A DNA stretch of 64,000 nt from assembly GCA_026413945.1 (NCBI GenBank), contig JAOAJX010000006.1:13577-77576 (forward strand), given 5' to 3'. The notes beneath the pieces are model-generated. The model made no database searches, was not told where the DNA came from, and worked only from the letters and a program-made list of their open reading frames with translations. Source of the stretch: Candidatus Iainarchaeum sp. (lineage in GTDB: Archaea > Iainarchaeota > Iainarchaeia > Iainarchaeales > DTGL01). The position numbers and the translations under genes were made by a program. This document shows positions 98 to 33,949 of the stretch, piece by piece; the stretch's first letter is position 1, and each line of letters begins with the position of its first letter.

Positions 98-1447
98 ATG
101 GTTAAAGCAGTTTTAAGACCTTTTATTGCTTTTTTGCCATTATTTTTGCTTTTAATATTGATCTTAAACAATGTTGCCGCACAGGAAGGCGAGCTTCCTC
201 TTATTCCGCATTCATTTTATGGAACAGTGAAAATAAATGACCAAAACGCCCCTGCTGGCACTAAAATATATGTTTTTATAAATGGCGTATTGCGCGGTTC
301 AATTGAAACAACTGAAAGCGGCTTTTATGGCAGATTTCCAAAGCTTGCAATAGACGGCACCTCTGCTGACAGGAACAAGCTCATTGTATTTTGCATTGGC
401 GCTTTAAAAGCAAACCAAACTTCACGCTGGCAGTCAGCAAAGGTGGAGCGCCTTAATCTCACAACCTCCGCTGAGAATTGCCCTTATAACCTAGAAGCAA
501 CGCCACAGCCGAGTCCGACACCAACACCTACTTCAACAAGAACCCCAGCGCCAACAAGGACGCCTAATGATGATGGTGCTGGTGGCGGAGGCGGTAGCTC
601 TGGAGGCAGCAGCGCTAGTGCAAGCCCAACTCAAACACAATCAGCCAAAACGCCGCAGGTTGCAGAAAAAATATTGTTGGAGGAAACAATTCATTGCAAA
701 AAGCGCGATGACCTTGAAGGCTTTCTTGTTTTTGTAAAGAAGGAGCAAAGGAAAAAGAGCGCAATGGCACTCGATGGGCTTTTAAGGATTGAGAGGAAGA
801 TTGTGCTGAAGGAAATGAGCCAAGGAAACAAGAAATGGCTTAGGGCTGAAGTAATGCTTATAATTGAGAATGTGTCCGGCAGAAGAATTGAGAACTTGTT
901 CCTAATTGAGGAAATCCCAAAGGAAATAGCAGAAAGCGCCGACTCGGTAAAAAGCAAAAGGAATTTTGCTGTTCTCATAAAAGACCCTGTGATTGAGTTT
1001 TATCTTGGAAGCATTGAAAATGCAGCCGTAATTTCTGTGCAGTATTATTCTGATATTGATTACAGCACAGATATTAATGAATTAAAGGCAGTTCTTACTG
1101 CAACGAAAGGGCCTGTTGCTTATGAAGTAAAAGAAAGCAAGGACTGCAATGATAATAATCCATGCACGATTGACGAATTTAAAGAAGAGATTGGCTCTTG
1201 CCAATACACTGTGCTTCCTGACGGGACAAAATGTGGAACTGGAAAAGAATGCAAGGCCGGCAAATGCACAGAAGTTAAAGAAACTAAGGCGCCTGTTGAA
1301 ACGGAAATGCCTCTAGAAACGACTGCGGCTAAAGAAAAAGTCGTCCTGCAGGATTATTTATGGGTTATTTTTGCAGTTTTGGCAGCATTTTTTGTGGTAG
1401 GGATATCTATATTAATAAGAAGGTACAATATAGTTAAAGAAAAATAA
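98..1447 (+). CDS. Secreted/surface protein with an N-terminal signal peptide, a Pro/Thr-rich and poly-Gly linker, a Cys-containing C-terminal domain and a C-terminal TM anchor.
   Basis: The six-frame ORF is 77-1447 and begins at TTG. An in-frame ATG at 98 gives MVKAVLRPFIAFLPLFLLLILILNNVAAQ, a typical signal peptide. The linker TPQPSPTPTPTSTRTPAPTRTP+GAGGGGGSSGG lies at about 494-660. The C-terminal hydrophobic stretch is WVIFAVLAAFFVVGISILI followed by RRYNIVKEK. It is a paralogue of the next ORF (shared NGQNAP.GT motif). Confidence 0.6.
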   Translation: MVKAVLRPFIAFLPLFLLLILILNNVAAQEGELPLIPHSFYGTVKINDQNAPAGTKIYVFINGVLRGSIETTESGFYGRFPKLAIDGTSADRNKLIVFCIGALKANQTSRWQSAKVERLNLTTSAENCPYNLEATPQPSPTPTPTSTRTPAPTRTPNDDGAGGGGGSSGGSSASASPTQTQSAKTPQVAEKILLEETIHCKKRDDLEGFLVFVKKEQRKKSAMALDGLLRIERKIVLKEMSQGNKKWLRAEVMLIIENVSGRRIENLFLIEEIPKEIAESADSVKSKRNFAVLIKDPVIEFYLGSIENAAVISVQYYSDIDYSTDINELKAVLTATKGPVAYEVKESKDCNDNNPCTIDEFKEEIGSCQYTVLPDGTKCGTGKECKAGKCTEVKETKAPVETEMPLETTAAKEKVVLQDYLWVIFAVLAAFFVVGISILIRRYNIVKEK

Positions 1448-16828: not shown

Positions 16829-16832
16829 AAAA

Positions 16833-17384: not shown

Positions 17385-17552
17385 GAAGTCACACTCTTTG
17401 TTGTTTTTGTCACTATCTTTTGGGTATTTTGGTACATTGGTTTTATAATATATATAATGAGAAGCGCAACAATTGCAAACACAAGGATTAAGTAAACTGC
17501 AGACCAATCGCCTTGGGCCTTTTCTTCTGGCAAGATGCCTTTTTTCAATCAC

Positions 17553-17658: not shown

Positions 17659-19938
17659 ATGAAGATTGGCGGTTTTAAAGTAGGGGAATATGCATTTAAG
17701 GAAGAGGGCAAAAAAAAGCATCTTGTATTTGATTGTGCCTCATGTGTTTATCATGCATCAATATCCGATGACCGCGTTTGCATGTATCATGTGCTTTATG
17801 CACTCAATGAGATAGATGCAGATGTAATTGTACTTTCCGAGGTTTATGAGAGGATATATGATGAAAAGCAAACCCTTATTTTGAAAGAAATTGTAAAGCT
17901 TATTCAAAAGTTCTCGATGGAGGCGCCTTGGTCATACAATAACCTTGTCAATCCGCAATACCTTAAGGATGAAGGCGTTGTAAGTGCAAGACATAAAATG
18001 ATTGTAACTATAACTCATGACCTAATAGCATATGATCCACTCGGTGCCTACTTTGCATGTCTGCGTGAAATTAACAGGGAAAAGGAAACGTTCTCTAGCA
18101 GCGGCCCTGATTACAAAGCAGGTTCTGCTATTTACCTCAAGACACTGCTTTACATTAAAAGTGCATTTGAGGAATGCGAACTAATAAAGCAGACAAAGAA
18201 GTTTTTAACTGAGCTCAAGGAGATGCCTGAATTTAAGGAAATTTATAGGGCTTTGTTTGAAGCGCAAATAAAGCCGGCCTTTATCGGATCGCGTCTTGTT
18301 TTTAGAGAAGAAGAAGGCATGGAGCTTCTCGATGAGTATTTGGTTAAGAATAGCACAGTCCAGATATTTAGCCATCCAAACCAGACACAAAATCTTTACT
18401 TCATAAATCCCCCCGAATATACTTTGAGCCCAGAAAAATATTTCGTACTTAGCAAGGCAAAAGAGATTGTCTCTGGCTATACGCCGGGCAAGGCATCACT
18501 GAGCACAGTTGCAAAATCGAGGGAGTATTTTGAGCGTTTATATAGAAGCACTATAATGGAAATAGCACAACAGCATAACATCTCGCTAAACAAAAAAGAA
18601 ATTGTTGAACTCAGCGAAATTGTTGCAAGATACAGCGTTGGTTATGGCATACTTGAAATACTTCTAAGCGACAGGAAGCTCACAGACATCTACCTTGACT
18701 CCCCAATAGGCCAGACGCCGCTCTATGTTATGCACTCTGATTTTGATCAGTGCCTTACAAATGTCCTTTATACAGAAAGGGAAGCATCTGCGCTTATCAC
18801 AAAGCTCAGAGCTATGAGCGCAAGGCCTTTTGATGAAGTACATCCAGTGCTTGATTTTGACCTACCTGAGCTCGAGACTAGGGTAGCAGCTATAGGACCG
18901 CCACTTGCACCAGATGGCGTTGCTTTTGCATTCCGCCTACATAAAATAACGCCTTGGACATTGCCTCAATTCATAGATGTAAAATACCTAAATCCTTTGG
19001 CTGCTGGATTTATTTCATTCTTAATAGATAATCAAGCAACAATGCTTGTAACTGGTTCAAGAGGCTCTGGCAAGACATCTTTGCTTAGTGCATGCATCCT
19101 TGAAATTCCTAAGAACACAAGGATTATTGTGCAAGAGGACACGCTTGAAATACCCGTAGAATACATGAAAAAAGTTGGTTTTAACATACAGCGCCTAAAA
19201 ACAAGATCGCCCATAAGTGTGTCAAAAACTGAAGTTGAGGTTGAACCAGAGGAAGCGCTTAGGACTGCCCTGCGCTTGGGCAACAGCGCGCTTGTCATAG
19301 GAGAGGTGCGTTCAAAAGAAGCAAGAACATTATACGAAGCGATGCGCATAGGTGCCGCAGGCAATGTTGTAATTGGCACAATACATGCTGACTCAGCCTA
19401 TGCTGTTTGGGATCGTGTTGTTAATGACCTTGAAGTTCCCACCACTTCTTTCAAGGCAACAGATATAGTTGTTACGGCACGCCCAATAAGGTTTTATGGC
19501 TCATTAAAAAGTAACAGACGGGTTGTTGAGATAACAGAAATAAGGAAGCATTGGATTGAGGAACCTGCAAGAGAAGGCGGCCTTTTAGATCTGATGAGAT
19601 ATTCTGCAAAAGAAGATAATCTTGAGCTTTTGGAGGACAATCTTAAAGAGTCTGAGCTTTTTGATAAAATCTCGAGAATATCTGGACAAACCCTTGAAGA
19701 GATGTGGAAAGATATAAGAATGCGTGCAGAGTCAAAGCGCTACCTAGTAGAAATGAAAAACAAGCATGATATACCTGAGTTATTAGAAGCTGACACTGCA
19801 TCAATGGCAAATGACAAGCTTATGCTTCTGAGGGAAAAACAAATCAGAGAGTTTGGCAAAGTAAACTATGATGAAATTCTTGAGCAGTGGAAGAAATGGC
19901 TAAATGATAAAATAATACCAAGGCTTATAAAGAAATGA
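17659..19938 (+). CDS. Type II/IV secretion-family ATPase (FlaI/ArlI / PilB/TadA-like) with a ~160-aa C-terminal extension.
   Basis: Walker A is LVTGSRGSGKTSLLSA and the Walker B/Asp box is NSALVIGEVRSKEA. The His box is GTIHADSAYAVWDRV. It is 759 aa. Confidence 0.85.
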   Translation: MKIGGFKVGEYAFKEEGKKKHLVFDCASCVYHASISDDRVCMYHVLYALNEIDADVIVLSEVYERIYDEKQTLILKEIVKLIQKFSMEAPWSYNNLVNPQYLKDEGVVSARHKMIVTITHDLIAYDPLGAYFACLREINREKETFSSSGPDYKAGSAIYLKTLLYIKSAFEECELIKQTKKFLTELKEMPEFKEIYRALFEAQIKPAFIGSRLVFREEEGMELLDEYLVKNSTVQIFSHPNQTQNLYFINPPEYTLSPEKYFVLSKAKEIVSGYTPGKASLSTVAKSREYFERLYRSTIMEIAQQHNISLNKKEIVELSEIVARYSVGYGILEILLSDRKLTDIYLDSPIGQTPLYVMHSDFDQCLTNVLYTEREASALITKLRAMSARPFDEVHPVLDFDLPELETRVAAIGPPLAPDGVAFAFRLHKITPWTLPQFIDVKYLNPLAAGFISFLIDNQATMLVTGSRGSGKTSLLSACILEIPKNTRIIVQEDTLEIPVEYMKKVGFNIQRLKTRSPISVSKTEVEVEPEEALRTALRLGNSALVIGEVRSKEARTLYEAMRIGAAGNVVIGTIHADSAYAVWDRVVNDLEVPTTSFKATDIVVTARPIRFYGSLKSNRRVVEITEIRKHWIEEPAREGGLLDLMRYSAKEDNLELLEDNLKESELFDKISRISGQTLEEMWKDIRMRAESKRYLVEMKNKHDIPELLEADTASMANDKLMLLREKQIREFGKVNYDEILEQWKKWLNDKIIPRLIKK

Positions 19939-19950
19939 AGTCGTGGTTAT

Positions 19951-22308
19951 ATGCCTGAAAGAGCGAAAAAAAGCACTGGTTACACAATAGGTCAGCTTTA
20001 CAAAGGCATTGTTGTAGAGCGCGGCTTACCTGAAGAAGGTGAAAGCAAGCTGATGAAAAAAAAGATGCCAAGGTATGTGCGGTTCTGCAAGAGAGTTGCA
20101 AGAATGGTGCCTGCGATGGGCGGGCAGAAAAAATTTCCAGAGGAGCACAACAATGCAATTGAATTTCTTGGCTGGGATCTTAGACCAGAAGAGTTTTCAG
20201 CAGCAGTCAACTTCATTGCACTAATTCTTGTTTTTTTAGCTTTCGCTATTTGGCTTGTAGTTGTATCTAGCCCAATTGCCAAAGCGCTTTCGACAGTGCC
20301 TTACAGTGCGTATGCATTGCTTGCTATGCTTGTGGTTGCCGCACTTTCAGTAGCAAATTATATTTACCGTTATCCAATATCAGCTGCACAGGCAGAACAG
20401 AAAAAAGCCCTTGGGTATATACCTGAGATTGTAGGTTACATGATAATGTCAATGAAGTTAACACCAAATCTTGAAAAAGCGGTTGAGTTTTCTGCAGACC
20501 ACGGAAGGGGCAAAATAGCTGAAGAGTTTAAGAAGCTCACATGGGATATAAGCACTGGAATATATACAACCATAACTGAGGGGCTTGACAGAGTTGCATA
20601 CAGATGGGGCTCTTATGCGCCGGAATTCAAGCGTGCACTAGTTAGGATAAGGGCATCAGTGCTTGAGGACACTGAAGCAAAAAGGGATGCGGTGCTAAAC
20701 AAAACCATGGATGAGCTTCTTGCCACCATTAAAGAAAAAATGGATGCTTATGCAAGAAGCTTAAGGCAGCCTGCTGTTGTGCTTTTTTTTGTGGGTGTGC
20801 TTTTGCCACTTATCCTCATGATAATACTGCCTATTGGTTCAGTATTCAGCGGCTTGCCACTTGCAAATCCTCTCGTAATAATTGCTTTGTACAATGTAGC
20901 AATACCTCTTGGGTTGATTTATTTTTCATTAGGGATTTTAAAGCAGCGACCGCCTACACAAGAAGCACCAGAGATACCCGATGATTATCCAGGATTACCA
21001 CCAAAAAATAAAATTAGGTTTGGAAATAATTATATTGACATCTTCTTGTTGGTTGGAATTGTTGCTTTTATTGGCATAATTGCTTCTTATTATTTTCATC
21101 AGGAAGGCTTTCCCCCAAAAAGCATGCTTAGGTCAGAGTATGGCGAAAAACCTTCTCAAATTATAAGAGCTGACCGCACTGAAAAAGAGGTACTTGAAAG
21201 AAGTGGTTACCCAGAAGATTATTTTGATATACCTAATGGTGTGCTTTATAAGCAATATTTGAGCAGTTATTCAGAAAGTAGTAGCGCTGACATAGAGAAA
21301 AAGGCAGAAAATAAGGTTTTATTTGAAAAAAAAATATTCTTTATGACAAAAGAAAATGATATAACGCCCTACAATCTCTGGTTTGGGCTTATATTAACTT
21401 TTTCCATCTGTCTTTTCATCGTTTTATATTATCCGGCGAAATACAAAAGAAAGATACAGCTTGAAATATCAGCCATGGAAAGCGAATTTAAAGATGCACT
21501 TTATATTATGGCTTCACGTCTCGGAGAAAACAGGCCAATGGAAGAAGTGCTCAAGCAAACTATTGATTTTTTACCTAACGCAGTAATAAGCAAACAAGTG
21601 TTTTCAAAAACAATTGATAACATCACTCTTCTTGGAATGCCTTTGGACAGCGCTGTTTTTGATCAAAAGTTTGGCTCTGTTGCAAGGATACCCTCTGAAG
21701 TTATAAAAACCGGGATGCGCCTTGTAGTAGATGCTTCAACCTTGGGCACGAGTATTGCTGCAAGAACATTGGCATCTTTGTCTATACAGCTTGATAACAC
21801 TGAAAAGGTTGCAAAAGCGCTGAAGGAAATGATTGATGAGATAACAGTAACAATGCGCACCATGGCAGTAATAATAGCCCCTGTTGTCTTGGGCATAACA
21901 ACGGCACTTTTCAAGATAGTTGTGCTTACGATGGCTAGCATATCACAAAGCTTAGAAGGAAGCAGCTTAGGTGGACTATCTGGAAACATACCAACTGTGG
22001 GGACAAGTGGAAGATATGGAAACCTTGGTGCTTTAACTGAATCATTTGCAAAGGTAAGTGTAAGCAGCTTTGTAAAACCGGAAGCACTAGCACATATTGC
22101 TGATCCGCTGCAATTCATCATCATAAGCGGAATATATGTATTTCAAATTGTTGCTATAATCCTATACTTTGTAACAATGCTTGAAGAGCGAAATAAGCTT
22201 CTTCTCAGACTGAACATCGCAAAGTATCTTCCACTTGCTTTGGCAATATACATTGCGACAGTCATGGGCACCAACGTGCTTCTTGAAACGATGACAAGCG
22301 GAGTGTAA
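19951..22308 (+). CDS. Type IV pilus/archaellum-type platform membrane protein (FlaJ/TadC/PilC-like) with two T2SS-F domains.
   Basis: It is a 785-aa polytopic protein. Two soluble helical T2SSF-like domains (ALGYIPEIVGYMIMSMKLTPNLEKAVEFSADHGRGKIAEEF... and MESEFKDALYIMASRLGENRPMEEVLKQTIDF...) are each followed by TM bundles. It lies directly downstream of the ATPase. Confidence 0.75.
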   Translation: MPERAKKSTGYTIGQLYKGIVVERGLPEEGESKLMKKKMPRYVRFCKRVARMVPAMGGQKKFPEEHNNAIEFLGWDLRPEEFSAAVNFIALILVFLAFAIWLVVVSSPIAKALSTVPYSAYALLAMLVVAALSVANYIYRYPISAAQAEQKKALGYIPEIVGYMIMSMKLTPNLEKAVEFSADHGRGKIAEEFKKLTWDISTGIYTTITEGLDRVAYRWGSYAPEFKRALVRIRASVLEDTEAKRDAVLNKTMDELLATIKEKMDAYARSLRQPAVVLFFVGVLLPLILMIILPIGSVFSGLPLANPLVIIALYNVAIPLGLIYFSLGILKQRPPTQEAPEIPDDYPGLPPKNKIRFGNNYIDIFLLVGIVAFIGIIASYYFHQEGFPPKSMLRSEYGEKPSQIIRADRTEKEVLERSGYPEDYFDIPNGVLYKQYLSSYSESSSADIEKKAENKVLFEKKIFFMTKENDITPYNLWFGLILTFSICLFIVLYYPAKYKRKIQLEISAMESEFKDALYIMASRLGENRPMEEVLKQTIDFLPNAVISKQVFSKTIDNITLLGMPLDSAVFDQKFGSVARIPSEVIKTGMRLVVDASTLGTSIAARTLASLSIQLDNTEKVAKALKEMIDEITVTMRTMAVIIAPVVLGITTALFKIVVLTMASISQSLEGSSLGGLSGNIPTVGTSGRYGNLGALTESFAKVSVSSFVKPEALAHIADPLQFIIISGIYVFQIVAIILYFVTMLEERNKLLLRLNIAKYLPLALAIYIATVMGTNVLLETMTSGV

Positions 22309-22313: not shown

Positions 22314-22760
22314 ATGATGAACAAAGGTTATTTTTGGCCTTTTAGGTTGTTGATTGCAACAATATTTGCGCTTGCGATGCTCACAATAATAATTTCTGCT
22401 TTGGAGTACTTCAAAAATGTGGAAAGATCAACAAGCTACGAGAGGTTTGAAAACGGCTTCAAAAATGCGCTATATGCTGCAAGCAGCGATCCAAGTTATG
22501 GCTTGGCAAAAGAGAAAAACATCACAATTGTTGGAATAATAACAGCAGGCCAATTTTCAGAAAAATACAAAATACCCTCAGAATGCATAGAGTTTCAGGC
22601 AATAAGCGGCATGCTAATAAAGCTCTCAGAAAACAAGCGAAGGGTTATCATTGAGAAGGAAATAACGATTGATGTTTATTTCCATTGCATACGATACAAC
22701 GTTGGAGAATGCGAAATAAAATGCTACATATCCTTTGGCAAAGCGCCAAAAATTGGTTAA
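22314..22760 (+). CDS. Pilin-like protein with a class III signal peptide.
   Basis: The N-terminus is MMNKG|YFWPFRLLIATIFALAMLTIIISAL. It is 148 aa with a Cys-containing globular C-terminal domain. Confidence 0.6.
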   Translation: MMNKGYFWPFRLLIATIFALAMLTIIISALEYFKNVERSTSYERFENGFKNALYAASSDPSYGLAKEKNITIVGIITAGQFSEKYKIPSECIEFQAISGMLIKLSENKRRVIIEKEITIDVYFHCIRYNVGECEIKCYISFGKAPKIG

Positions 22761-22836: not shown

Positions 22837-23439
22837 ATGATGCGTATGAATTCAAAAGGGCAGGCTTTCTCAACATTCCAGCTGCTTATATCTGCAATAA
22901 TTGCGCTGGCTATACTTGTGATCCTGCTTTCCGTGCTAGGAATAATTCCAAATCTTTTCAATATATCCCAGAATCCAGTGGATGCGATGGTTGACAAGAT
23001 AAAAGATGCGAGGAACAAGCCAGCCGTGCCAGTACAAGGCGGTAAGGTAAATTTCACAAAGGACAACAGAACTGTTACAACTGAAAGCATAGCAAGTGTA
23101 AGTGGTGTTGGTCTTGAAAAAGAACAAATATGCTTAAGCCCGGGCCAATTTATGGGCCAAGCAGAAATAATCAGCAAAGGCCAAGATGGTTCAAAAGAGA
23201 AGCAATGGACTGTAGTAGAGGATGGTTCAAGGATAACTTACAATAAGGACAATGTGCAGACAACATTTACAGTTATTTGCCATTCTTCAGCGACAAGGCT
23301 CAAGACTTACATTGAAGAGGATCTTCCAGAGATAAAGGTAGAGTGGATGGACAGCGGCTCTTTTAAGTGCAAGTGCCTTGATAATGAGCAATTCAAGGAG
23401 CAGCCATGTTGCCTAATAGTGCTTAAATACTCTAGCTAA
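22837..23439 (+). CDS. Pilin-like protein with a canonical archaeal class III signal peptide.
   Basis: The N-terminus is MMRMNSKG|QAFSTFQLLISAIIALAILVILLSVL, with a KG|Q prepilin-peptidase-type site. The 200-aa protein has four Cys in its C-terminal domain. Confidence 0.7.
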   Translation: MMRMNSKGQAFSTFQLLISAIIALAILVILLSVLGIIPNLFNISQNPVDAMVDKIKDARNKPAVPVQGGKVNFTKDNRTVTTESIASVSGVGLEKEQICLSPGQFMGQAEIISKGQDGSKEKQWTVVEDGSRITYNKDNVQTTFTVICHSSATRLKTYIEEDLPEIKVEWMDSGSFKCKCLDNEQFKEQPCCLIVLKYSS

Positions 23440-23452: not shown

Positions 23453-24103
23453 ATGGCCAAAAAAAGCGCATCTAAGAAAAAAAGCCCCAATACTTTTATA
23501 GGACACTCTTGGCAAAGATTTAGCAAACAGAGCTTGAAGAAAGAGCTTTTGGCATCAGCAAAGTTTCTAATTTTTTTTCTGATTTCTTTTTCCATTATTT
23601 TCATTATTTTTTCTTTTCTGCCAATAGAAATTTTCGAATTTTTCACAGCAAAGATATCTGCAGCAATTCTCGAAGCCGTGGGCTATTCTACCAAAATAAT
23701 AACCGATGAACCCGTAAAGATTATTGTGAACTCTAAACACACGATTGAGATAAGCTACCTATGCACAGGAATTATTGAAACTATCGTGGTTGTAAGTGCG
23801 GTTGCAGCATCACTTGGAATAAGTCTCAAGAAAAGGCTCATTGGTGCTTTGGCAGGAGCTATTTTTGTGAATGTGCTTAATATATTAAGGATAATTGTAA
23901 CAATCGTTGCAATATCGAATCTGAAAGATATTGGCTTTGTGGATTTTATACATAATGTGCTTTTCAGGGCAACTCTTTTTGTGGGCATCGCTGTTTATTA
24001 TGCTGTCTGGTTTTTTGCCTCAACAAGAAGCTTTAATCCAATAGCACGTTTTAAGCTATGGCTTTTCCCTAAAATAAATTGTAGAAGAAACAAAAAACAA
24101 TAA
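23453..24103 (+). CDS. Small archaeosortase/exosortase-family-like polytopic membrane protein.
   Basis: It is 216 aa with about 5 TM helices. A candidate active-site Cys lies in a membrane helix (ISYLCTGIIETIVVV) and a conserved Arg in NVLNILRIIVTI, as in EpsH/ArtA-family transpeptidases. The call is family-level only, made by motif pattern and not by a search. Confidence 0.4.
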   Translation: MAKKSASKKKSPNTFIGHSWQRFSKQSLKKELLASAKFLIFFLISFSIIFIIFSFLPIEIFEFFTAKISAAILEAVGYSTKIITDEPVKIIVNSKHTIEISYLCTGIIETIVVVSAVAASLGISLKKRLIGALAGAIFVNVLNILRIIVTIVAISNLKDIGFVDFIHNVLFRATLFVGIAVYYAVWFFASTRSFNPIARFKLWLFPKINCRRNKKQ

Positions 24104-24173: not shown

Positions 24174-27100
24174 ATGTTAACAGATAAGCTCGGCTCTATT
24201 TACGCAGGCATAGAGGAGAAATGGTTTGAGCTGCTTAAAGCACTGCAGGAAAAAGGCATTCCTGCGTATAGCTATGCTGAGTTCTTAGAAAGCAGGGGCA
24301 TACCATCTTTGCCTTTTACAATAGCCATCATAATACTCCTTCTTGTAATTTTGTTTTCATTTTCTTTTGGGGGCGCATACACGGATGTGAGCTTAACTGT
24401 TACAATAAGGGATGATCAGGGGCAATCGCTAAGTGATGTCAAGCTCGAATTATATAATGACGATGGGCAAACACTTAAAAGTGAAACTGTGCAAAGTGGT
24501 TACAAGATTGAACTTAAAAGAGTTAAGATTGGCTCAACCATAACAGCATCTGCTTCAAAATCTGGTTACAGAAGTGCTTCGGCCGAAAAAGAGATAAATT
24601 CCAAAACCGCAACTATAAGCATAACACTTAAGAGAGAGGCAAGGCTTGTTTCTGCAAAAGTCCGGCTCATCGATGAGCTTACCTCAACCTTGATCAGAGA
24701 TGCGAGGTGCGAAGTTTCTTTTGATAAGAATACATTAGGCATTACTAGAGACTATGATGGCTTGTTTTTGGTAAATGTGCCACAGAAAACAGATGTGGTG
24801 CTAAAATGCACAGCTAATGGCTATGAAGACCTTCAGGAAGCAATGCGATTTGATGACGGTGAAATCAAAGTAGTAAAGTTGAAGCCAAAATCGGTTGATG
24901 TTAATTTAAGCACTCTACTGATAAGCGTATATGACGAGGAAACAAAGCAGCTTATAAAAGGGACAAGCATTCGCATTATAAACTCATCAACAGGCGTCAC
25001 GATAACAGACATTAATTCACAGAGCGGCGATTATACTGAAAAGATAAAGATAAACACCCAGGTTAGGATAATTGTAGAAAAAGCAGGTTATATGAGCTAT
25101 GTTGAAGATTTCACCATAAGAACCGCAGAGGTTGTTAAGAAAATATACTTAAAAAAAGGCGGTGCACAACTTATAGTAAATGTTACCTCAAAGGATGGCA
25201 TTGTGCAAGTAAATGCTGATGTTTCGCTTTTTGACTCAAACTTCCAACTCGTTTCTGCAAAAAAAACTGCCGTTTTAGGGAATGCTGCTTTTGATGGTAT
25301 TGATCCAAACAGGGATTATTATTTTAATGCATTCAAAGAAGGTTTTCTGCCGGCTTATGGAAGAATAAGTGCAGGGACCAAAAGCTTGGATATTAAACTT
25401 GAAAAGCCAACAGCACAAAATTCTGCATTGGTGAAAATAACAGTTAGGAACAGCTCAGGCAATATTACAAACAATGCAGCGCTGAAATATTATCGCATTA
25501 TAAATGCATTCAAGATTCCTCTTGGCATTCCTGTGAGAAAAACAGGGCTTACAGGCACAATTATAGAAACCCTTCCAGAGGGTACATTCCTTATAGCTGC
25601 CGAGACTGAAGTAGAGTATGGTGAAAAGGAAATAACAGTGATGGCAGGCATCGACCAACAGGTTGACATAAACATGTCAAGAAAGCCAAACTTTGTTGAG
25701 CTTCGATTAATTGATGGGAATGGAATGCCTTTGAAGGGAGAAGTTATTGTAAAGAGCAAAAGCGGAAAGACACTTTTTGCTGGAAATGTAAATGGGGGCG
25801 CGATTTTTGACAGTGAGATGAATGAAAGCTTTTTGGTGAGCGTGAAAACGCCTGATGGCAAAACATTTGAGCAGGAAGTAAGGGTTGGCGCAAACAATGT
25901 TGCTGAAGTCCGATTAGGGGCTGATAAAAAGGAACTAACAGATGGTGTCAAGCCCATAATAGAGTTTGCTGGAGTTTTTGATTCTGGAGGAAAAAGCATT
26001 GAAGGAGTTACGGCTGGGGAGTTTGCTTGGCTGCGTTTCAATGTCAGTTTTCCCCAGGGTGAGAAAACAGGCATACATATAAGGGTTGGGCCTGATAGCA
26101 TTGCGTCTGCCGATGCCCAAGAGATTGGAATTTTTGGTTTTGATGGAAATGCAAGCAGCTTTGTGTATGGCAAAAGCTATCAGGCACCTTTAGGTGAACA
26201 AAAGGATCTTGCAAGCAAAGGTGCAGCGAATGAGAGAAACAAATGGCTTGAGCTTTACTTTAACAAAGCACCATCGCAAACAGCAGTAAGCATAAAGGTA
26301 AAAACAGATAATATAAGCAGAGAAAAAGACTTTGAAGTACACTACAGAGCTTGGAGCGAAATAGGTACAAAAGTATTCAGAGACCCTGCAGACAGCGTGC
26401 TTGGAAATGAGAAAACAAGCAATGCAAAGCAAGCGCTTTATGCTGAAACAAAGATTGCAAGAGTAAAGGTATTTGAAGGAAAAGCAAGCTGCTCTGAAGA
26501 ACTCTGCATAGCTCTTGCTTTAATAGACTCAAACAATGTGAAGGTTAAAGAAGATGGTTTCTCTGCAGTTGAGGGTCAAACATATGCTCTAGAAATCTCT
26601 GTAAATTCTGGCAAAAAGATGAGTGCTGAAATTGTAGTAAGAAGCGAAAACTCAAATGTATTGCTTTCAGAGCTTACCGAAGATGTGTTGTCCTTTAGCC
26701 CGAAGGGAGAATTTTCAAAGACTGAGTTAAGGGGCTCCTTAAAACTCGAGGCAAATTCTTCAAAAATTGTAAGGGCTTACTTCAAAGGCAAGTCAGCCGG
26801 TACAGCAACGCTTGAGGCCCTTGTTAGGAGCGGAGACCTGAACGCAAATAAAAAGATAAGTTTCAATGTAACTGGAAGCAAAGAAATGCTTGCTGAAATT
26901 TATAAGAAAGGTGAAATAAAGGCAGGTGAAAAGCTAAGAGTTACCTTAAGGGATTCTGAAACAAAGGATCCCATCACAAATGCTTTTGTTTCAATAACAA
27001 GGGAAGGTGAGGTGCTTTTAAGCACTACTGGAAACAACACAAATGAAAACGGTGCAAATGGCATTTATGTCTTGGGTATAGATAAGCTAAGCCCGGGAAA

Positions 27101-30100
27101 GTATGTGCTGACAGCTAAGGCAGTTGGTTACAAAGATGCTTCTTTCCCAATAGTAATTTCAGCAGAAAAGTTACTTTCAATAGAACCACAATTAGAAATA
27201 ATGCTAAATAAGGGCGAGAAACAAAGAAGCGCAAAGCTGAAGCTTACAAATGGCTCATTTGATGTTATAGATAAGCTTGGTTATGAAGTAAAAGGCCTAA
27301 GCGGGGATACAAGCGATTTTAACATCATAGTTGCTCTGCCTCCAAAAATAGATGTCAGCAGAACCATTGATATTGAAGTGGTTGCCATATATAAAGGAGA
27401 TGTTGAGAAAAGAGCATATGCTGAATTTGAACTTATTGTTAGTGGATCTGAAAACCCAGTAGTAACTGCAAAAAGCAAAATAAAGGTTTCATACAATAAA
27501 GAGATTCCACCAGAGTGCATTGAGATTGACAAAAGTGAGGCTGAGATGCATTTCTCAGGAATTGCTGGCTCAGCTGAAGTCTTGCCTTTGACAATAACAT
27601 ACAAAAATGAAGCCTTTTGCAATAAGCCGCTTACATTCACGCCCAAGATGAAAAGCGATGATGATAAGCTTGTGCTAAGTGCACAGCCCTTCACCATAGT
27701 GCCTGGTGAAAATAAGACTATTGAGCTGAAAATAACAAACAATGCAGAAAGAGTGGGTGTGTTTGAGCAAAAAGTAGAAGCTACGGTATTCCTAGAAGCA
27801 CCCGAGGTTACGAAAAGCATTAGCTTGGGGATATTATTTACAGATCCTGCTTATGCGCTCCAGACGAATGATAACATACCGATATTCATGAGTTTTGATG
27901 TTGCAAAAGGCAGCTTTAGCGGAACAGCACCTTTGTTTGCGAAGAACTTTGGCAAAAAGGTTATTGAAAATATAAGGTGGAGCGTTAAGCCACCACAGCA
28001 GATTGAAATTTATATAACTTCTACAACCGGCAGTGGTAGTGGACAGCCACAGAACATTCCCAACCAGCAAATGCCTGGAATGCAAAATTTCATGCAAGCA
28101 CCAAACACGCCTTACATACAAGGAAACCCTTCAATGGCCGGAACCCAGTTTGCTGTAACCCTTGCTCCAGGCGAAGAAATGGAACCAAAAACAGTATTGG
28201 CAACAAGCACTGCAGCTAACCTCACAAGAGGGCCTCACAAGGGCGAGATAATACTGACTGGAACTGTCGATGGCAAGCAGTTCCAAAAAGTAGTTTCGAT
28301 ATGGGTATTTGTTTCAACAGCACAATGCATAAAAGTTGCCCCAGCTGATGAGCTTTACTTCTCAAGTGAGGATTCATCTCAGGGTGTAATAGCAAAGAAG
28401 ATAACAATAAAGAACGAATGCGGAGAAGTAGCCAGGAACTTTATCCTAAAGCCCCAAAACCTTGGAAACAACACTTTGAGCATAACACTTCTTGGCAATA
28501 AGGACTTTTTGTATCCTGATGAAAGTGCACAAGCACAAATAGTTCTTACAAAGCGCGGTGATTACTTCAATGCTCAAAGGCCTGATAACATAATTGTTAG
28601 TGTTTTCCTAGTAAATAGCCAGAAATTTGTTGATTCTAATCCCTTGCCTGTGCTTATTGAAGTAGGAAAGAAGCCAGATGTATCTGCTGGTCCAGTTTAT
28701 AAAGAAGTGCAAATACCTGTTTGCGGCGAAACATCTTCAGTTAAAAAATCAGTCCAGTTCCCTGTAATGAGTGCAGATATTGGCTGTGATTCTGGCTACT
28801 GCGACGCAGTGCAGCTTTCTGGCTATATTGTGGAGCGCATAAAAGGTGTGATGCAAAAAGTTGACAAAGTGCTGCAGCAAAACGATTTGGTGAGCAGCTA
28901 TGCTATGTGCAGCCAGTTGGAAGGCTTCTGCAGCTTTTCTGCAATGGGCATAGTGCCTGAAGTTTACACAGTTTATATGAGAAATGATTCTTTTGGAAAA
29001 GAAGTTCTGCAAAGAAGGGTTGAAAGCTCAAAGGAGTTTGCAACATTTGTAACAGAATATTTCCAAGGCGATGTTAGTGAGATAGTAAAGAGCGCAACTG
29101 GTTTCACAACAAGCAAAATATTCATGACAAAGCCTCTTGTTGGCTGCGGTCGCTATAAGATATCAATACAAGGCGCTGTGCAGAATATTCAAGGGCGTTT
29201 GTCAAGAGAAAACTACTTTATACTTGTAAAAATTGTTGAAGATAGGAAAGTTACGCCTGAGTGCATGATGCGTATCCAAAACATTGCAAATTTCTTACCA
29301 TTAGATCGTGGGCTTGCTGCTGACAAACATTATAATACCTGGCTCGGAACAACCGAGGGTTTGGATGCCACACGTAAAGCAGCTGAGCTTTTTGCACAAA
29401 AGCTTTTTGATGATAAGAGCAGAGTTAATGTTGCATATCACACGAATAAGCTTAAAGTTATTCTCGGTGAAATACCTGAAAGCGGCATTGCAAAGATTTC
29501 AATGAACCAGGTATCGCAACAGCAGGCACAGCCTGCAACCCTTGGCGTTACAATAAATAAGCTTTATGTTACGCTTGACGAAAAGATGCAGGATGAAATG
29601 ATTGCAAAAGCATCTGAAGCGCTTAAGCAACTCATGGAGGGCTCATTTACTGTTGAGGGCTGCATAACAAAGGATGACTCTGCACTTGTAATATCAAAGC
29701 TCGAGCACACCGGCGACCTTGACATTGAGAAAGCATCAGACACAATTGAACTTTACTATAGTATGCCTATGTGCGTTGATATGAACGTAGTTAGCACAGT
29801 TCTTGAGCCGGTGGTGCTAAAAACAAGCTTTGCTTCGATGAAAGACAATGAAAAAGCAGGTATTCAGGATGTTTGGATTGAAGTCGATGGCAAGAGAATT
29901 TCAGAGTACTCTGAAAGGCAGGAGGGGACGCCAATCACACTTGAAAAAGAGGGTGGAGAAGAAAGCAAAAAGTTTAAGAAAAGCTTTAAACTATGCGTAA
30001 AGGCAAATGATGCTTACTTTGAGCTTGCTGCAGGCAAGAAGATTGGTGTGAAAGCCAGAAGCGTTATATTTGCAACTAAGGAGATGCGCTCATGGAAGGA

Positions 30101-32252
30101 AGTAACACTTGAGCTTTGTGGGATACACCCATATAAGCTAATTCAAAAGATGTCTAATGAAAAAGTAGAGCCTGGCAAAAGCAAGGTTTTTTATGCAACG
30201 GTTGGCTGGAAAGGCGAGCCAAATGAGATTGACTTTGCTGCTACAACTAGGGGTTTGACTGCAAGCGATCGCTTGAAAAGAGCACAAGAGCTCATGGAAG
30301 ATGTTGGCAAAGGCGGCCGCATTGATGATTCGCCAATAGGCCAGAAAATATTGGGCCTGAAAAGGCAGGGTTATGGGCTTTATTTCGGTGCTTGCTTAGC
30401 CGTATCTTTCATCTGCCATGTAGTTACAGGTTTAGATCCTCTTGGCATTAGGGCTCTAATAAATGCCATGATCGACTGTTTGCCTGCAACAATAGGGGGG
30501 CTTTTTGGCACTACAAAAGCGGGGCAGGGGTTCCAAAAAGCTTTAAACGATGCTTGGGAAAAGGTTAAATCAAATCTTAGATGGTTCTATGCGCCATGGA
30601 GCAGCGGAAAGGCAACTCCAAATACAGAAGCGGGGCTTTATGGGCAAGCAATGGATGAATTCTGGGATAATGCAGTGCCTGCTGCAATATTGGGCTTTGA
30701 GGCAGATTGGCTTGCAACAGAATTGCGCTCTTATGTTTACTCAAGAGGTTGGGCAAACAAGACAATAGGTAGCACCGAAGCCATAGATACAATTGCTGAA
30801 CAGATGGCAAAAGATGCAACACAAAAGTTTACCTCAAAGTATCTAAAAGGTGTTACGACGGCAGCATCGGATGATTTTATTAATGCTTTTACCCCTCAGT
30901 TACAGAGTTCATTACAAGAAAGCATTTCAAGCACATTAAGAAAAAACAGCAGCATGACATTTGGAAAACTTATTCAAGATAAAGCGGTTATGCAAAGCAT
31001 GTGGCAAAAGGCAACGTCGGATGAGAAAATAAAAACGCTTGTTTACAGCAAAGGGTTTGGCCGCGGAGCAGAAATAGAAAAACTTATTAGCAGCCACGCT
31101 GAAGATTTCCTTAGAAAAAGCGTTGATCCTAAAGATATAAAAGAAATTTTTGGCTCAAGCTCTGTCAGCCAAGAAGATCTCGCAAAGGCAATTGTAGATC
31201 AGATAGATAGCGCTGGATACAAAACATATGGAGTTAGGTTAACAAAGGATGTGCGAAAAGGTCTAATTAGTTCAGCAAAAAAGGGTATTAGCAAGGGTCA
31301 TATTTATGCAGATAGTATAGAGGGACAAGTGAATAATGCCTTAAAACACATACATATGGATAGAAGTAATGAGCTCATGCAAATTTATGGGCAAAATGTA
31401 CTTGACAATCTTGATGATGTAATGGCCCAACCAAAGCAGCCCGGGGCTTTTAAGAGAATGATTGAGGCAATGAAAACAAGGAGCTTTTGGGCACGCTTGG
31501 CAAAAAGCATTGCCTGTGGCGCTGTTTCAAATGCTGCAGGATATGCTGCTTATTCAAGCCATGTAAAAGGCGGGATTGAAGAACTTATGGACAAGGGGTA
31601 TATTCCAGAGGCGGGAGTCAGCGTTGGAGATCCTTCAAAGCTTATCAGCGGCTACACAGGCCCTAAACTTATGAAAAATAGGACTTACAAGATAACAATA
31701 AGCAAGGATGATTACGGAAACATAAGCTACAATCTTGAGCTTGTGGATACAGAAAAAGAAATAGAAGAAATGCGCGCTGCCATAAGCAAAAACCCTTCTG
31801 CACTGTGGCGCGAAGATTGTAAAGAGTACCGTGAAAAAGGCCTTTCTGAAATGGTCGGTTGCTTGGCACCAAAAACAGGTGATTACATAAAGCCAGAAGA
31901 GGTTGTCGCTTACTACAAAAACAGCGGCTTTATAAGGGAAGCTTCAATACAATTCAATGTGCACGAAGCGCTGATAATGGCTGCGCTTACAACAAGATTT
32001 GAAAACTTCGAGCCGTGCCCTGTAAACCAGAAATGGTACGAAGGCGAAGACAGTGAAAGAAAGCTCACCATAAAATGCGTAGCAATGCACATAAGTGAGA
32101 AGCTTGCAGCAAATCAGGATAATATAAGGTCTGCATTTGAAGTCCTTAGCAAAGAAAGGTCTGCTGATAAAGCAAGAGCCTACGCGATGGATGTCGAAGC
32201 TAAATACAGGATGTGGAAAACATACGACACATGCAAAGGAGAAGGGGGCTAA
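24174..32252 (+). CDS. Giant (2692 aa) type-II membrane surface protein, paralogue A of four. It has an N-terminal cytoplasmic segment and a single TM, then tandem prealbumin/Ig-like domains, a conserved central module and a helical C-terminal region.
   Basis: The N-terminus is ...EEKWFELLKALQEKGIP...LPFTIAIIILLLVILFSFSF. About 10 or more ~85-aa beta-rich repeats follow (for example SLTVTIRDDQGQSLSDVKLELYNDDGQ). Motifs shared with giants B-D are NKWLELYF, ALYAETK...ASCSEELC and CDSGYCDAVQ. A Q/N-rich linker lies at about 28020-28140 and a hydrophobic segment at 30364-30515. Confidence 0.85.
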   Translation: MLTDKLGSIYAGIEEKWFELLKALQEKGIPAYSYAEFLESRGIPSLPFTIAIIILLLVILFSFSFGGAYTDVSLTVTIRDDQGQSLSDVKLELYNDDGQTLKSETVQSGYKIELKRVKIGSTITASASKSGYRSASAEKEINSKTATISITLKREARLVSAKVRLIDELTSTLIRDARCEVSFDKNTLGITRDYDGLFLVNVPQKTDVVLKCTANGYEDLQEAMRFDDGEIKVVKLKPKSVDVNLSTLLISVYDEETKQLIKGTSIRIINSSTGVTITDINSQSGDYTEKIKINTQVRIIVEKAGYMSYVEDFTIRTAEVVKKIYLKKGGAQLIVNVTSKDGIVQVNADVSLFDSNFQLVSAKKTAVLGNAAFDGIDPNRDYYFNAFKEGFLPAYGRISAGTKSLDIKLEKPTAQNSALVKITVRNSSGNITNNAALKYYRIINAFKIPLGIPVRKTGLTGTIIETLPEGTFLIAAETEVEYGEKEITVMAGIDQQVDINMSRKPNFVELRLIDGNGMPLKGEVIVKSKSGKTLFAGNVNGGAIFDSEMNESFLVSVKTPDGKTFEQEVRVGANNVAEVRLGADKKELTDGVKPIIEFAGVFDSGGKSIEGVTAGEFAWLRFNVSFPQGEKTGIHIRVGPDSIASADAQEIGIFGFDGNASSFVYGKSYQAPLGEQKDLASKGAANERNKWLELYFNKAPSQTAVSIKVKTDNISREKDFEVHYRAWSEIGTKVFRDPADSVLGNEKTSNAKQALYAETKIARVKVFEGKASCSEELCIALALIDSNNVKVKEDGFSAVEGQTYALEISVNSGKKMSAEIVVRSENSNVLLSELTEDVLSFSPKGEFSKTELRGSLKLEANSSKIVRAYFKGKSAGTATLEALVRSGDLNANKKISFNVTGSKEMLAEIYKKGEIKAGEKLRVTLRDSETKDPITNAFVSITREGEVLLSTTGNNTNENGANGIYVLGIDKLSPGKYVLTAKAVGYKDASFPIVISAEKLLSIEPQLEIMLNKGEKQRSAKLKLTNGSFDVIDKLGYEVKGLSGDTSDFNIIVALPPKIDVSRTIDIEVVAIYKGDVEKRAYAEFELIVSGSENPVVTAKSKIKVSYNKEIPPECIEIDKSEAEMHFSGIAGSAEVLPLTITYKNEAFCNKPLTFTPKMKSDDDKLVLSAQPFTIVPGENKTIELKITNNAERVGVFEQKVEATVFLEAPEVTKSISLGILFTDPAYALQTNDNIPIFMSFDVAKGSFSGTAPLFAKNFGKKVIENIRWSVKPPQQIEIYITSTTGSGSGQPQNIPNQQMPGMQNFMQAPNTPYIQGNPSMAGTQFAVTLAPGEEMEPKTVLATSTAANLTRGPHKGEIILTGTVDGKQFQKVVSIWVFVSTAQCIKVAPADELYFSSEDSSQGVIAKKITIKNECGEVARNFILKPQNLGNNTLSITLLGNKDFLYPDESAQAQIVLTKRGDYFNAQRPDNIIVSVFLVNSQKFVDSNPLPVLIEVGKKPDVSAGPVYKEVQIPVCGETSSVKKSVQFPVMSADIGCDSGYCDAVQLSGYIVERIKGVMQKVDKVLQQNDLVSSYAMCSQLEGFCSFSAMGIVPEVYTVYMRNDSFGKEVLQRRVESSKEFATFVTEYFQGDVSEIVKSATGFTTSKIFMTKPLVGCGRYKISIQGAVQNIQGRLSRENYFILVKIVEDRKVTPECMMRIQNIANFLPLDRGLAADKHYNTWLGTTEGLDATRKAAELFAQKLFDDKSRVNVAYHTNKLKVILGEIPESGIAKISMNQVSQQQAQPATLGVTINKLYVTLDEKMQDEMIAKASEALKQLMEGSFTVEGCITKDDSALVISKLEHTGDLDIEKASDTIELYYSMPMCVDMNVVSTVLEPVVLKTSFASMKDNEKAGIQDVWIEVDGKRISEYSERQEGTPITLEKEGGEESKKFKKSFKLCVKANDAYFELAAGKKIGVKARSVIFATKEMRSWKEVTLELCGIHPYKLIQKMSNEKVEPGKSKVFYATVGWKGEPNEIDFAATTRGLTASDRLKRAQELMEDVGKGGRIDDSPIGQKILGLKRQGYGLYFGACLAVSFICHVVTGLDPLGIRALINAMIDCLPATIGGLFGTTKAGQGFQKALNDAWEKVKSNLRWFYAPWSSGKATPNTEAGLYGQAMDEFWDNAVPAAILGFEADWLATELRSYVYSRGWANKTIGSTEAIDTIAEQMAKDATQKFTSKYLKGVTTAASDDFINAFTPQLQSSLQESISSTLRKNSSMTFGKLIQDKAVMQSMWQKATSDEKIKTLVYSKGFGRGAEIEKLISSHAEDFLRKSVDPKDIKEIFGSSSVSQEDLAKAIVDQIDSAGYKTYGVRLTKDVRKGLISSAKKGISKGHIYADSIEGQVNNALKHIHMDRSNELMQIYGQNVLDNLDDVMAQPKQPGAFKRMIEAMKTRSFWARLAKSIACGAVSNAAGYAAYSSHVKGGIEELMDKGYIPEAGVSVGDPSKLISGYTGPKLMKNRTYKITISKDDYGNISYNLELVDTEKEIEEMRAAISKNPSALWREDCKEYREKGLSEMVGCLAPKTGDYIKPEEVVAYYKNSGFIREASIQFNVHEALIMAALTTRFENFEPCPVNQKWYEGEDSERKLTIKCVAMHISEKLAANQDNIRSAFEVLSKERSADKARAYAMDVEAKYRMWKTYDTCKGEGG

Positions 32253-32257: not shown

Positions 32258-33949
32258 GTGAAAGTCCGTGGTTTTAATCTGTTTACAGCACTACTCGCAA
32301 TGATAATTGTCGTAACAAGCTCCATGCTTGTGCTAATAATGATACAAAATGAAAGAAACGCGAACACCATTGTCGAAAATGCAACAAGTGATGCTAGGCT
32401 TGAAGCGGTTATAAGGACAATGCGCACAGATGTGCTCAATTCTTTCAACCATTATGTTAGGGAAGAAATAGAGTACTACACAAGCATGAATCCCATTCCA
32501 ATAGAAGATCTCTCTGTTTGGGAGGATTGGGATACACTCATAAGGTATTTTATACACGGTTACTTTGGACGTAGTGGTTCACCCATGTTTGCATCACAGA
32601 TAGCAAACAGCATGCCAGAAATGATAAGAAGCTACCGCGAAACCCTAACTTATGAAGCACGTTACAAAGTTGAAGTTGTCGGCGACGATGAAAAGTTAAA
32701 GGATGCAATACTTGAGCTAATACTTGTATCAGCAGAAGAAGATGATTTCATTGAGGTAATTCAATGTGATGGCACACCGCAGGGCTGCCCCATTGGAAGC
32801 TTTTATATTAATCTTAGAATAACAAAGCTGAGCAATGAAAAATATGAAAGCTTGCCAAGGATTGTGGTGCAAGACCTTGTAACAAAAAAAGAGATTAGGG
32901 AAATAATACTTCCAAAGGCAGACCTAAAGATGTATGTCCCATCACGGCTTTTTAAGGCAATGGCTTATACGAGATATTTTATGCATACTGACTTAACTAA
33001 TGTAAATTCTTCTAATGATTATGGTTATTTATCTCCAAGAATACACAATGAGATTGATTCAATGGCTTTAGGCATCTGTGACTATGGATTTTGCAAACCT
33101 CGGGAAAATCCATACTTTCCACCAACTGCAAGGTTTATTGAGGACAAAGGATGTCCCAATAGCGGCAGAAATCAGTTAGATAAAGTAATTGGGAATTTTA
33201 GAGGCCATTCTTTTGTCTATAACCCATCAGATGGTGCTGATTTAAGAGAATCTCTTGAGAAGCTTGTAAAGATGCGCATATGCGATCTTTCTGCAAAGCA
33301 TGTTGCACCTTTAAGCACAGATAAATTCACAGTTGCGAAGGGGCCTTCTGTGGAAGGCGTTGATTGCTATGTTACGTTTGATAGGGTTTCAGCAACTGCT
33401 ACATCTGCGAAAAAAGTAGAATATTCTTTGCCGGGCCTTACTTTACCAGGCATAATGCCACCCCAAGAGCCAAACAATCCAAGTGCATGTCCCTTCAATT
33501 TCAACTTACCACAAAACCGAAATTTGGGGTACTACATAGAAGGAAGCAAAATTAAGTGGCCGTCAGAGAAAACAATTAGCGTCCATCAAGACGTTTGTAG
33601 TGCACTTTTAGCTACTGTGCCAGGCCTTGAACAAAAGCTAAGGTTTTGTGGTGTTCAAAATTGGAGTTGTTGTGCAGAGATTGCTGAAGCTACCTTTGTA
33701 GTTACTTTTATAGAAGGCGATGCAAACTATAAGGTAAACAAGAACAGGAATGTGAGATTTATGTTCCAGATTCCTGACATGAGCTACACGCCATTTAATC
33801 CAAATTACACTTCTGGATCAGTGCTTGGAACGCTTGGTTGTGCTTTAGAGCATCAGCCGAGATTACAAAGCTGCAACCCAGATCAATGGACTTGCCAAAC
33901 ATATGAGTATCAGGGCAATGTATATGGCTGCTATCCAAAAGTGCCATAA
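32258..33949 (+). CDS. Pilin-like, Cys-rich 563-aa protein with a class III signal peptide-like N-terminus.
   Basis: A GTG start is preceded by a strong SD-like ggagaaggggg about 10 nt upstream. The N-terminus is MKVRG|FNLFTALLAMIIVVTSSMLVLIMIQ. There are more than 20 Cys in the C-terminal half (CDGTPQGCPIG, CDYGFC, CGVQNWSCC). The start lies 5 nt after the stop of giant A. Confidence 0.6.
   Translation: MKVRGFNLFTALLAMIIVVTSSMLVLIMIQNERNANTIVENATSDARLEAVIRTMRTDVLNSFNHYVREEIEYYTSMNPIPIEDLSVWEDWDTLIRYFIHGYFGRSGSPMFASQIANSMPEMIRSYRETLTYEARYKVEVVGDDEKLKDAILELILVSAEEDDFIEVIQCDGTPQGCPIGSFYINLRITKLSNEKYESLPRIVVQDLVTKKEIREIILPKADLKMYVPSRLFKAMAYTRYFMHTDLTNVNSSNDYGYLSPRIHNEIDSMALGICDYGFCKPRENPYFPPTARFIEDKGCPNSGRNQLDKVIGNFRGHSFVYNPSDGADLRESLEKLVKMRICDLSAKHVAPLSTDKFTVAKGPSVEGVDCYVTFDRVSATATSAKKVEYSLPGLTLPGIMPPQEPNNPSACPFNFNLPQNRNLGYYIEGSKIKWPSEKTISVHQDVCSALLATVPGLEQKLRFCGVQNWSCCAEIAEATFVVTFIEGDANYKVNKNRNVRFMFQIPDMSYTPFNPNYTSGSVLGTLGCALEHQPRLQSCNPDQWTCQTYEYQGNVYGCYPKVP

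Follow-up and report, generated by a model that had tools for sequence, protein, structure and literature searches.

To our knowledge, experimental work on archaeosortases has been limited to haloarchaea, with ArtA as the example, and many short subfamilies of the exosortase/archaeosortase superfamily are without a known target. ArtA of Haloferax volcanii (TIGR04125), whose substrates carry the PGF-CTERM signal, is a polytopic protein of the superfamily PF09721/TIGR04178 with conserved Cys and Arg (and His) residues. It is presumed to cleave at the outer end of the transmembrane (TM) helix of its substrates, which are then re-anchored. Cys173 is an active-site residue of ArtA, and a thioester intermediate has been proposed (PMC7157517). 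For the family as a whole, a catalytic triad of Cys, Arg and His was proposed from the near-perfect conservation of these residues in otherwise very divergent proteins (Haft 2023 preprint). Here, we describe a gene of this superfamily in a stretch of 64,000 nucleotides (nt) from Candidatus Iainarchaeum sp. (contig JAOAJX010000006.1, positions 13,577 to 77,576), which was analyzed at its full length and is called the window in the following. The gene encodes a protein of 216 amino acids (aa), referred to as the sortase, and lies between a type IV pilus-like module and the gene of a giant surface protein, giant A (Table 1). We estimate the probability that it encodes an active sortase functionally tied to this pilus/giant-adhesin apparatus at about 60%.

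The window protein would act much as is presumed for ArtA, but differs from it in size and gene context. It is much smaller (four TM helices, 216 aa) and is encoded inside a type IV pilus-like/giant-protein cluster, whereas ArtA is encoded elsewhere in the genome. Compared by residue numbers, the Cys-Arg spacing of ArtA (about 41-42 residues, with the Arg reportedly being R214) is like that of C104 and R146 here. Similar in minimal size are ArtD, XrtX, XrtH, XrtG, XrtM and XrtF, the best-scoring subfamilies, whose models have 150-187 positions. However, the window protein stays below their cut-offs of 86-170 bits, and the sorting signals of these subfamilies were not found among the window proteins. 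A sortase subfamily restricted to one phylum has precedent, since NCBIfam holds models for a pacearchaeosortase (NF033505), from another DPANN lineage, and a heimdallarchaeosortase (NF045528). In dedicated one-to-one systems the enzyme gene is regularly found beside the same partner family (the criterion of the Haft 2023 preprint), as is the case here. In contrast to those systems, the regular partner, the family of giant A (giantA), has no C-terminal domain of motif, TM helix and basic tail, and canonical-looking adjacent targets occur in five loci only, which correspond to three lineages. With the class C pilus sortases of Gram-positive bacteria there is only a conceptual likeness, in that a gene for a Cys transpeptidase lies within a pilus cluster. 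These enzymes belong to an unrelated fold and family and to another type of pilus, and there is no sign here of covalent pilin polymerization. A literature search returned nothing on sortases of Iainarchaeota/Diapherotrites, on the pacearchaeosortase or heimdallarchaeosortase models, or on a cluster of sortase, giantA and pilus genes. The conserved context of the sortase is the main new result and is unreported in the literature searched, while the family annotation is already in NCBI.

The gene context was compared across 46 loci from GTDB species representatives, collected with a profile built from 20 sequences. Open reading frames (ORFs) in these loci are longest-ORF calls and families were assigned by BLAST. 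All loci come from one phylum and are non-independent observations. The giantA family was the most consistent neighbor of the sortase. Of the 36 loci where 4 kb or more of downstream sequence was available, 30 have a giantA-family gene 3' of the sortase and on its strand; overall such a gene is seen in 33 of 46, at a median distance of 660 nt (range 35-4526). Of the 26 loci whose upstream sequence extends for 6 kb or more, 23 contain T2SSE/T2SSF genes. The pilus module runs divergently from the sortase in 24 loci and co-directionally in three plus the window. The linkage of sortase and giantA outlasts inversion of the module, insertions of up to 4.5 kb and divergence of the sortase to ~30% identity. 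Because this linkage holds while the orientation of the pilus module changes, the sortase travels with giantA and not with the pilins. The sortase is a conserved part of the surface-apparatus cluster, heading a giantA/large-pilin operon beside the pilus module.

The window contains two type IV pilus-like modules. In module 2, minus-strand pilins are followed by the ATPase and platform genes and by a pair of pilins; after these come the sortase, giant A, the 563-aa pilin-like protein and finally giants B-D. Only 13 nt separate the stop codon of the 200-aa pilin-like gene from the sortase start, and giant A starts 70 nt after the sortase end. A scan of the + strand from 17.0 to 32.4 kb with a bacterial-type consensus revealed no terminator-like site; given that type of consensus, this lends weak support to co-transcription.

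An earlier note on the window had proposed that the ORF between the pilus module and giant A encodes an exosortase/archaeosortase-like membrane protein, with a Cys in the sequence YLCTGIIE and an Arg in NILRI. The position of the gene was correct, and the arrangement is kept across the phylum. Both motifs are present, at residues 102-109 and 143-147 of a 216-aa protein with four TM helices. That the ORF is a real gene and not a chance frame follows from an identical protein in NCBI nr, from homologs in the same gene order and from the number of representatives retrieved with a profile. Homologs of 66% and 53% identity in two other Iainarchaeota metagenome-assembled genomes (MAGs) keep the exact order of platform, 147-aa pilin, 201-aa pilin, sortase, ~2700-aa giant and ~563-aa protein. 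When 1.84 billion representatives were searched exhaustively with the profile, 325 proteins came up at E<=1e-3, of which 133 reached E<=1e-10 and 18 reached E<=1e-30; almost all have a length of 160-220 aa.

Curated models were used for the family assignment. The threshold of PF09721 (Exosortase_EpsH, Pfam) was marginally passed (26.6 bits; gathering threshold, GA, 25.7), and TIGR04178, the exosortase/archaeosortase signature of NCBIfam, scored 35.1 bits at a cut-off of 23. The latter match spans residues 99-188 and includes Cys104, Arg146 and His167. Among the subfamily models, ArtD (TIGR04175) gave the highest score (37.6 bits, cut-off 125), followed by XrtX (35.8 bits, cut-off 170), XrtG (33 bits, cut-off 102.75) and XrtH (32.7 bits, cut-off 86). 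XrtM (25.5 bits) and XrtF (22.5 bits) were likewise far under their curated cut-offs. Up to E<=10, the ArtA model gave no match to the window protein, and the NCBIfam scan matched neither pacearchaeosortase nor heimdallarchaeosortase. The same scan of 90 clade members gave a TIGR04178 match in 90/90, while the cut-off of a named subfamily was reached in 0/90. Weaker similarities were seen to ArtD (best E = 2.8e-12), ArtA (6/90), pacearchaeosortase (21/90, best E 4.6e-8) and heimdallarchaeosortase (9/90, best E 1.6e-6). As the subfamily thresholds were tested and not reached, the protein is not ArtA, ArtD or a member of another named subfamily. Judged from these profile matches, membership of the 216-aa protein in the exosortase/archaeosortase superfamily is supported, as the earlier note had suggested. 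The call is correct, yet not new as an annotation: NCBI names the identical protein, from a Candidatus Diapherotrites MAG, 'exosortase/archaeosortase family protein'.

In the alignment of 90 members, where identity to the query goes down to 22%, residues C104, E109, G131, N143, R146, H167 and F171 are invariant. The proposed Cys/Arg pair is thereby confirmed and forms, with His167, the Cys/Arg/His triad of the family. The protein had also been described as a miniature, much shorter than canonical ArtA. The size holds, but it is no oddity: with a clade of 160-220 aa and short subfamily models of 150-187 positions, such a length is the norm. The clade is unnamed, lineage-specific and essentially confined to Iainarchaeota (Diapherotrites, DPANN). 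Almost all of the 46 loci are labeled Candidatus Iainarchaeum or Diapherotrites, the complete AR10 genome included. Contigs with other labels are L020 and L024 (Chloroflexota/Chloroflexi), L039 (Falkowbacteria), L032 (Thaumarchaeota) and L040 (Micrarchaeota). They mostly carry the sortase and a giantA-family gene; L039 has pilus genes too, and L032 a sortase homolog only. Since the same cluster is present on them, these contigs are probably mis-binned. In the representative library, the 1102-aa protein P0147 has a sortase domain (residues 18-185) joined in-frame to a large pilin-like protein (MNSKG/FYAVTPFLGVIIIL...). The junction is a short repeat (KREQGSGMERKG...); P0147 may be a genuine fusion, or may come from reading through two neighboring genes.

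The gene is predicted to encode a catalytically competent, minimal four-TM enzyme. Both termini are placed in the cytoplasm because of their basic ends and the positive-inside rule. An AlphaFold2 (AF2) model from the 90-sequence alignment reached a predicted local distance difference test score (pLDDT) of 88.6 and a predicted template modeling score (pTM) of 0.79. It contains helices at residues 25-54, 58-75, 102-118, 125-156 and 160-191 and three short strands at 80-100, in agreement with the TM segments from hydropathy. Helix 58-75 and the strands were assigned to an outer-face element and not to a fifth TM segment, because a fifth span contradicts the charge distribution. The prediction places Cys104, Arg146 and His167 in the outer halves of TM2, TM3 and TM4. 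The Cys had been expected inside a membrane helix, and the topology prediction indeed puts Cys104 in TM2, close to the outer face. It is at this level of the membrane that substrates of the family present a motif abutting their membrane helix. Following the model of ArtA, Cys104 would attack the peptide bond at the outer end of the substrate membrane helix, leading to a thioester. The substrate helix would be released, and water or an amine nucleophile, for example a membrane-lipid headgroup, could then resolve the acyl-enzyme. A component of the pilus/giant-adhesin apparatus would in this way be matured, released or re-anchored.

As substrates, the most conventional candidates would be secreted proteins with a C-terminal anchor, among them those encoded at 6659-11236 and 98-1447. 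According to the earlier note, these surface proteins end in a short motif, a TM helix and a basic tail, as expected of sortase substrates. TM helices and basic tails are present, but a shared motif is not: the contexts ...VVLQDY/LWVIFAV... (98-1447) and ...FNLPSLPED/VVFLVVY... (6659-11236) have nothing in common (LQDY-LWV... versus LPSLPED-VVF...), and no known CTERM model recognizes either. The lack of a shared motif was one of the note's own grounds for refutation, and its substrate proposal is not supported. The last 72 aa of 6659-11236 had no match among 5.8 billion proteins at E<=10. The stretch FNLPSLPE[DE] (window 11090-11233 tail; L029:9-2018) forms a conserved island that abuts the TM helix and follows a non-aligning linker, while the body of 6659-11236 is 39% identical to the L029 homolog. 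This would be the pattern expected of a sorting motif, as seen with one homolog; the motif is carried by these two sequences only. A six-frame regular-expression search of all loci for LPxLP[ED] or xP[ED]x ahead of a TM helix and a stop returned only 6659-11236 and its L029 homolog. In 98-1447 no signal-like island is evident, because the tails of the orthologs are no more conserved than the rest. About nine proteins with signal peptide, C-terminal TM helix and basic tail were found in the 46 loci and the window. C-terminally anchored secreted proteins directly flank the sortase in L013, L029, L020, L024 and L027. The gene of the anchored protein in L013 and L029 shares ~20 nt with the start of the sortase gene. 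The neighbor in L020 and L024 is a shorter homolog of 98-1447, and L027 encodes a 1680-aa lectin-domain protein immediately 3' of the sortase. As these five loci represent about three independent lineages, the enrichment is suggestive at best.

The giantA family was rejected as a canonical substrate, since a C-terminal TM helix was found in 0/25 long members. Its most widely conserved part is the N-terminal leader with the TM helix, present in 34 loci (e.g. L013:1912, L033:10603). The leader of ~45 aa has a duplicated KGIP motif, Y..iE.k.Y...D.l..KGiPvY...d.lE.rGIP.FP, and is followed by a ~24-residue helix ending in G-[TGS]-[SG] (giant A 24174-24400; giants B-D at 34060, 41454 and 49958). This motif is predicted to face the cytoplasm, at a distance from the presumed active site, and looks like a prepilin-type or machine-docking signal more than a sortase signal. 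Because the RG/IP junction resembles a class III prepilin site, with an unusually long leader, the giants may be giant pilin-like subunits. Giant A also has an internal pair of weakly hydrophobic helices at residues ~2066-2112 (~30369-30509) with the motif [ILMF]DC[LGA].P. The motif is conserved in L005, L011, L018 and L029, ~600 residues from the giantA C-terminus, and is followed by a highly variable stretch (~2200-2500) and a conserved C-terminal domain. This 'DCLP' region (~residue 2070) was discarded as a signal, being weakly hydrophobic with basic residues before it and no basic cluster after it.

Several observations weigh against an active sortase tied to the apparatus. The models of CTERM sorting domains, PGF-CTERM included, matched none of ten window surface/pilin proteins (NCBIfam, E<=1). 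The roughly nine anchored proteins, from ~650 kb of Iainarchaeota DNA, have no common C-terminal motif. The neighbors in the window lineage (the 200-aa pilin-like protein, pil200; giantA; and the 563-aa pilin-like protein, pil563) have neither a C-terminal TM helix nor a tripartite signal, and no substrate emerged from the scans of the window and the 46 loci. The PF09721 score is 0.9 bits over the threshold. A fold search of the PDB returned generic helical bundles only and no solved relative, so that the active-site geometry rests on sequence and topology prediction. Gene calling in the loci was crude, by longest ORFs with BLAST families, and the conserved synteny could be partly inherited rather than functional. 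If the location reflected inherited gene order only, the protein would be a housekeeping archaeosortase that serves C-terminally anchored proteins throughout the genome, one enzyme for many substrates as with ArtA and PGF-CTERM. Described family members do pair with C-terminal tripartite signals (Haft 2023 preprint), two window proteins (98-1447 and 6659-11236) have the C-terminal TM helix and basic tail, and a single phylum supplies all loci. Yet a genome-wide role is at odds with the anchored proteins lacking a shared motif and with window candidates that match no known sorting-domain model, and inherited order fits poorly with a giantA linkage that withstands module inversion, insertions and sortase divergence. 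We regard a purely housekeeping role as unlikely, though not strongly so.

Alternatively, the enzyme may act in a non-canonical manner on the N-terminally anchored giants or pilins. It may clip the N-terminal helix of giantA at the outer face and so set the ectodomain free, or may be a transpeptidase that couples a component of the apparatus covalently to an amine of a pilin or giant protein. The latter would be a functional analog of the Gram-positive pilus sortases, working beside a type IV pilus-like machine. In its favor, giantA is by far the most consistent neighbor, leader and TM helix are its most widely conserved part, P0147 joins a sortase to a pilin-like protein, and the window lineage has no canonical target beside the sortase. 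However, the chain of an N-in anchor runs opposite to a C-terminal signal, so that the acyl-enzyme would keep the anchor and not the ectodomain, and the conserved giantA motif (KGIP...GIP.FP) is on the cytoplasmic side. The reading is purely inferential, and we know of no exosortase-family member that processes an N-terminal anchor; such an action seems improbable. Only a little more credence is given to the broader proposal of a maturation enzyme dedicated to the type IV pilus-like/giant-adhesin apparatus without a canonical C-terminal signal, which would clip or re-anchor giantA, or couple a component to pilin, giant or lipid; we consider it quite unlikely. Were the protein a membrane scaffold without catalytic activity, or a small membrane protein of other descent with fortuitous exosortase similarity, this would be in line with the marginal Pfam score, the subfamily scores far under cut-off and the generic helical bundles of the fold search. 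Against this, a second, independent curated model (TIGR04178) was clearly passed, also by all 90 clade members, and the exact Cys, Arg and His of the family are invariant at identities down to 22%, which is unexpected for a scaffold. Such an explanation is very improbable.

The preferred reading, an active sortase tied to the pilus/giant-adhesin apparatus, has consequences beyond annotation. That a phylum-confined, predicted catalytically intact clade holds the first position of a giant-adhesin operon, with a pilus machine next to it, suggests that assembly of the apparatus involves a processing step. If the target is a protein of the cluster itself, exosortase-type sorting would extend to type IV filament systems, and the order sortase, giant, large pilin would be a simple genetic marker for such loci. 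DPANN archaea are thought to be host-dependent and to attach via surface structures. A non-canonical dedicated enzyme, if real, would be the first link of the exosortase family to a type IV filament system, and this in symbiotic DPANN archaea. Were the protein a housekeeping sortase only, the result would be an ordinary annotation, already supplied by NCBI.

Table 1. Features of the sortase gene and of the surrounding surface-apparatus genes, in positions of the window
Feature	Position	Strand	Basis or remarks
Archaeosortase/exosortase-family gene, 216 aa, ATG start	23453..24103	+	ORF call
Cys104 codon (TGC); residue predicted to be the catalytic nucleophile, five positions inside TM2 as counted from the outer face	23762..23764	+	90-member alignment and topology
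Arg146 codon (AGG), NILRI motif, outer half of TM3	23888..23890	+	90-member alignment and topology
His167 codon (CAT), outer start of TM4, third residue of predicted Cys/Arg/His triad	23951..23953	+	90-member alignment and topology
Membrane core overall	23558..24022	+	hydropathy, charge counts and AF2
N-terminus of sortase			9 K/R, 1 D/E; predicted cytoplasmic
TM1, residues 36-56	23558-23620		hydropathy
Outer-face amphipathic helix and three short strands	23621-23749		AF2 secondary structure
TM2, residues 100-122	23750-23818		hydropathy
KKR cytoplasmic loop TM2-TM3	23819-23839		3 K/R, 0 D/E
TM3, residues 130-155	23840-23917		hydropathy
TM4, residues 167-190	23951-24022		hydropathy
C-terminus of sortase			8 K/R, 0 D/E; predicted cytoplasmic
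Giant A, 2692 aa, one N-terminal TM, immunoglobulin (Ig)-like and CarboxypepD_reg domains, no C-terminal TM	24174..32252	+	
Large pilin-like protein, 563 aa, MKVRG/FNLFTALLAMIIV, after giant A	32258..33949	+	sequence; homologs follow giantA in 13 loci
Giants B, C, D, N-terminally anchored, Ig-like repeats, no C-terminal TM	34060-41379, 41454-49934, 49958-56848	+	
Module 2 pilin-like genes	14895-17552	-	
Module 2 type IV pilus-like assembly ATPase (T2SSE)	17659..19938	+	PF00437 E=1.8e-20; homologs adjoin sortase in 25 loci
Module 2 platform (T2SSF, 785 aa)	19951..22308	+	PF00482 25.2 bits, exactly GA; paired with ATPase in 25 loci
Pilin-like protein, 148 aa, class III-type N-terminus MMNKG/YFWPFRLLIATIFAL	22314..22760	+	sequence; pilin family in 26 loci
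Pilin-like protein, 200 aa, NSKG/QAFSTFQLLISAIIAL, directly 5' of sortase	22837..23439	+	sequence; family conservation
Weak candidate substrate: 449-aa secreted Cys-rich protein, QDYLW, TM, RRYNIVKEK	98..1447	+	shorter homologs directly 5' of sortase in L020, L024
Weak candidate substrate: 1525-aa secreted protein, FNLPSLPED (11090-11116), TM, basic tail	6659..11236	+	
Module 1 T2SSE ATPase with N-terminal 4Fe-4S domains (Fer4, Fer4_6)	3374-5113	+	T2SSE E=5e-38
Module 1 split T2SSF platform	5079-6586		next gene encodes the 1525-aa surface protein

The fusion of 4Fe-4S domains to the type IV filament ATPase of module 1 is unusual. Between both pilus modules lies a PAC2-family gene, proteasome-assembly-chaperone-like (12841-13593, +, E=3.7e-37), among the few housekeeping-type genes in the annotated parts of the window.

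Other genes were seen near the sortase in the compared loci. A family of membrane proteins of 298-396 aa, absent from the window, directly adjoins the sortase in 10 loci, usually divergently (e.g. L010:1003-1899, which overlaps the sortase start, L015:8850-9902, L025, L031, L040, L041 and L042). Neither this family, nor a 191-aa family, nor a 208-aa protein of L013 had Pfam matches. In a divergent branch without giantA (L027:15827, L044:5577, L045:7111), the large downstream proteins share the sequence 'AVQQLMALHG[KR]A', located N-terminally, right after a signal-peptide-like helix.

At its very start (1-30), the window has a G+C-rich hairpin with a T-run (GGCCCCGGAAGGGGC TTTTATTACTTTTTT), which is terminator-like. 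Long ORFs in the first 58 kb are almost all on the + strand, GC skew and AT skew are positive there, and the sign flips at ~58-60 kb.

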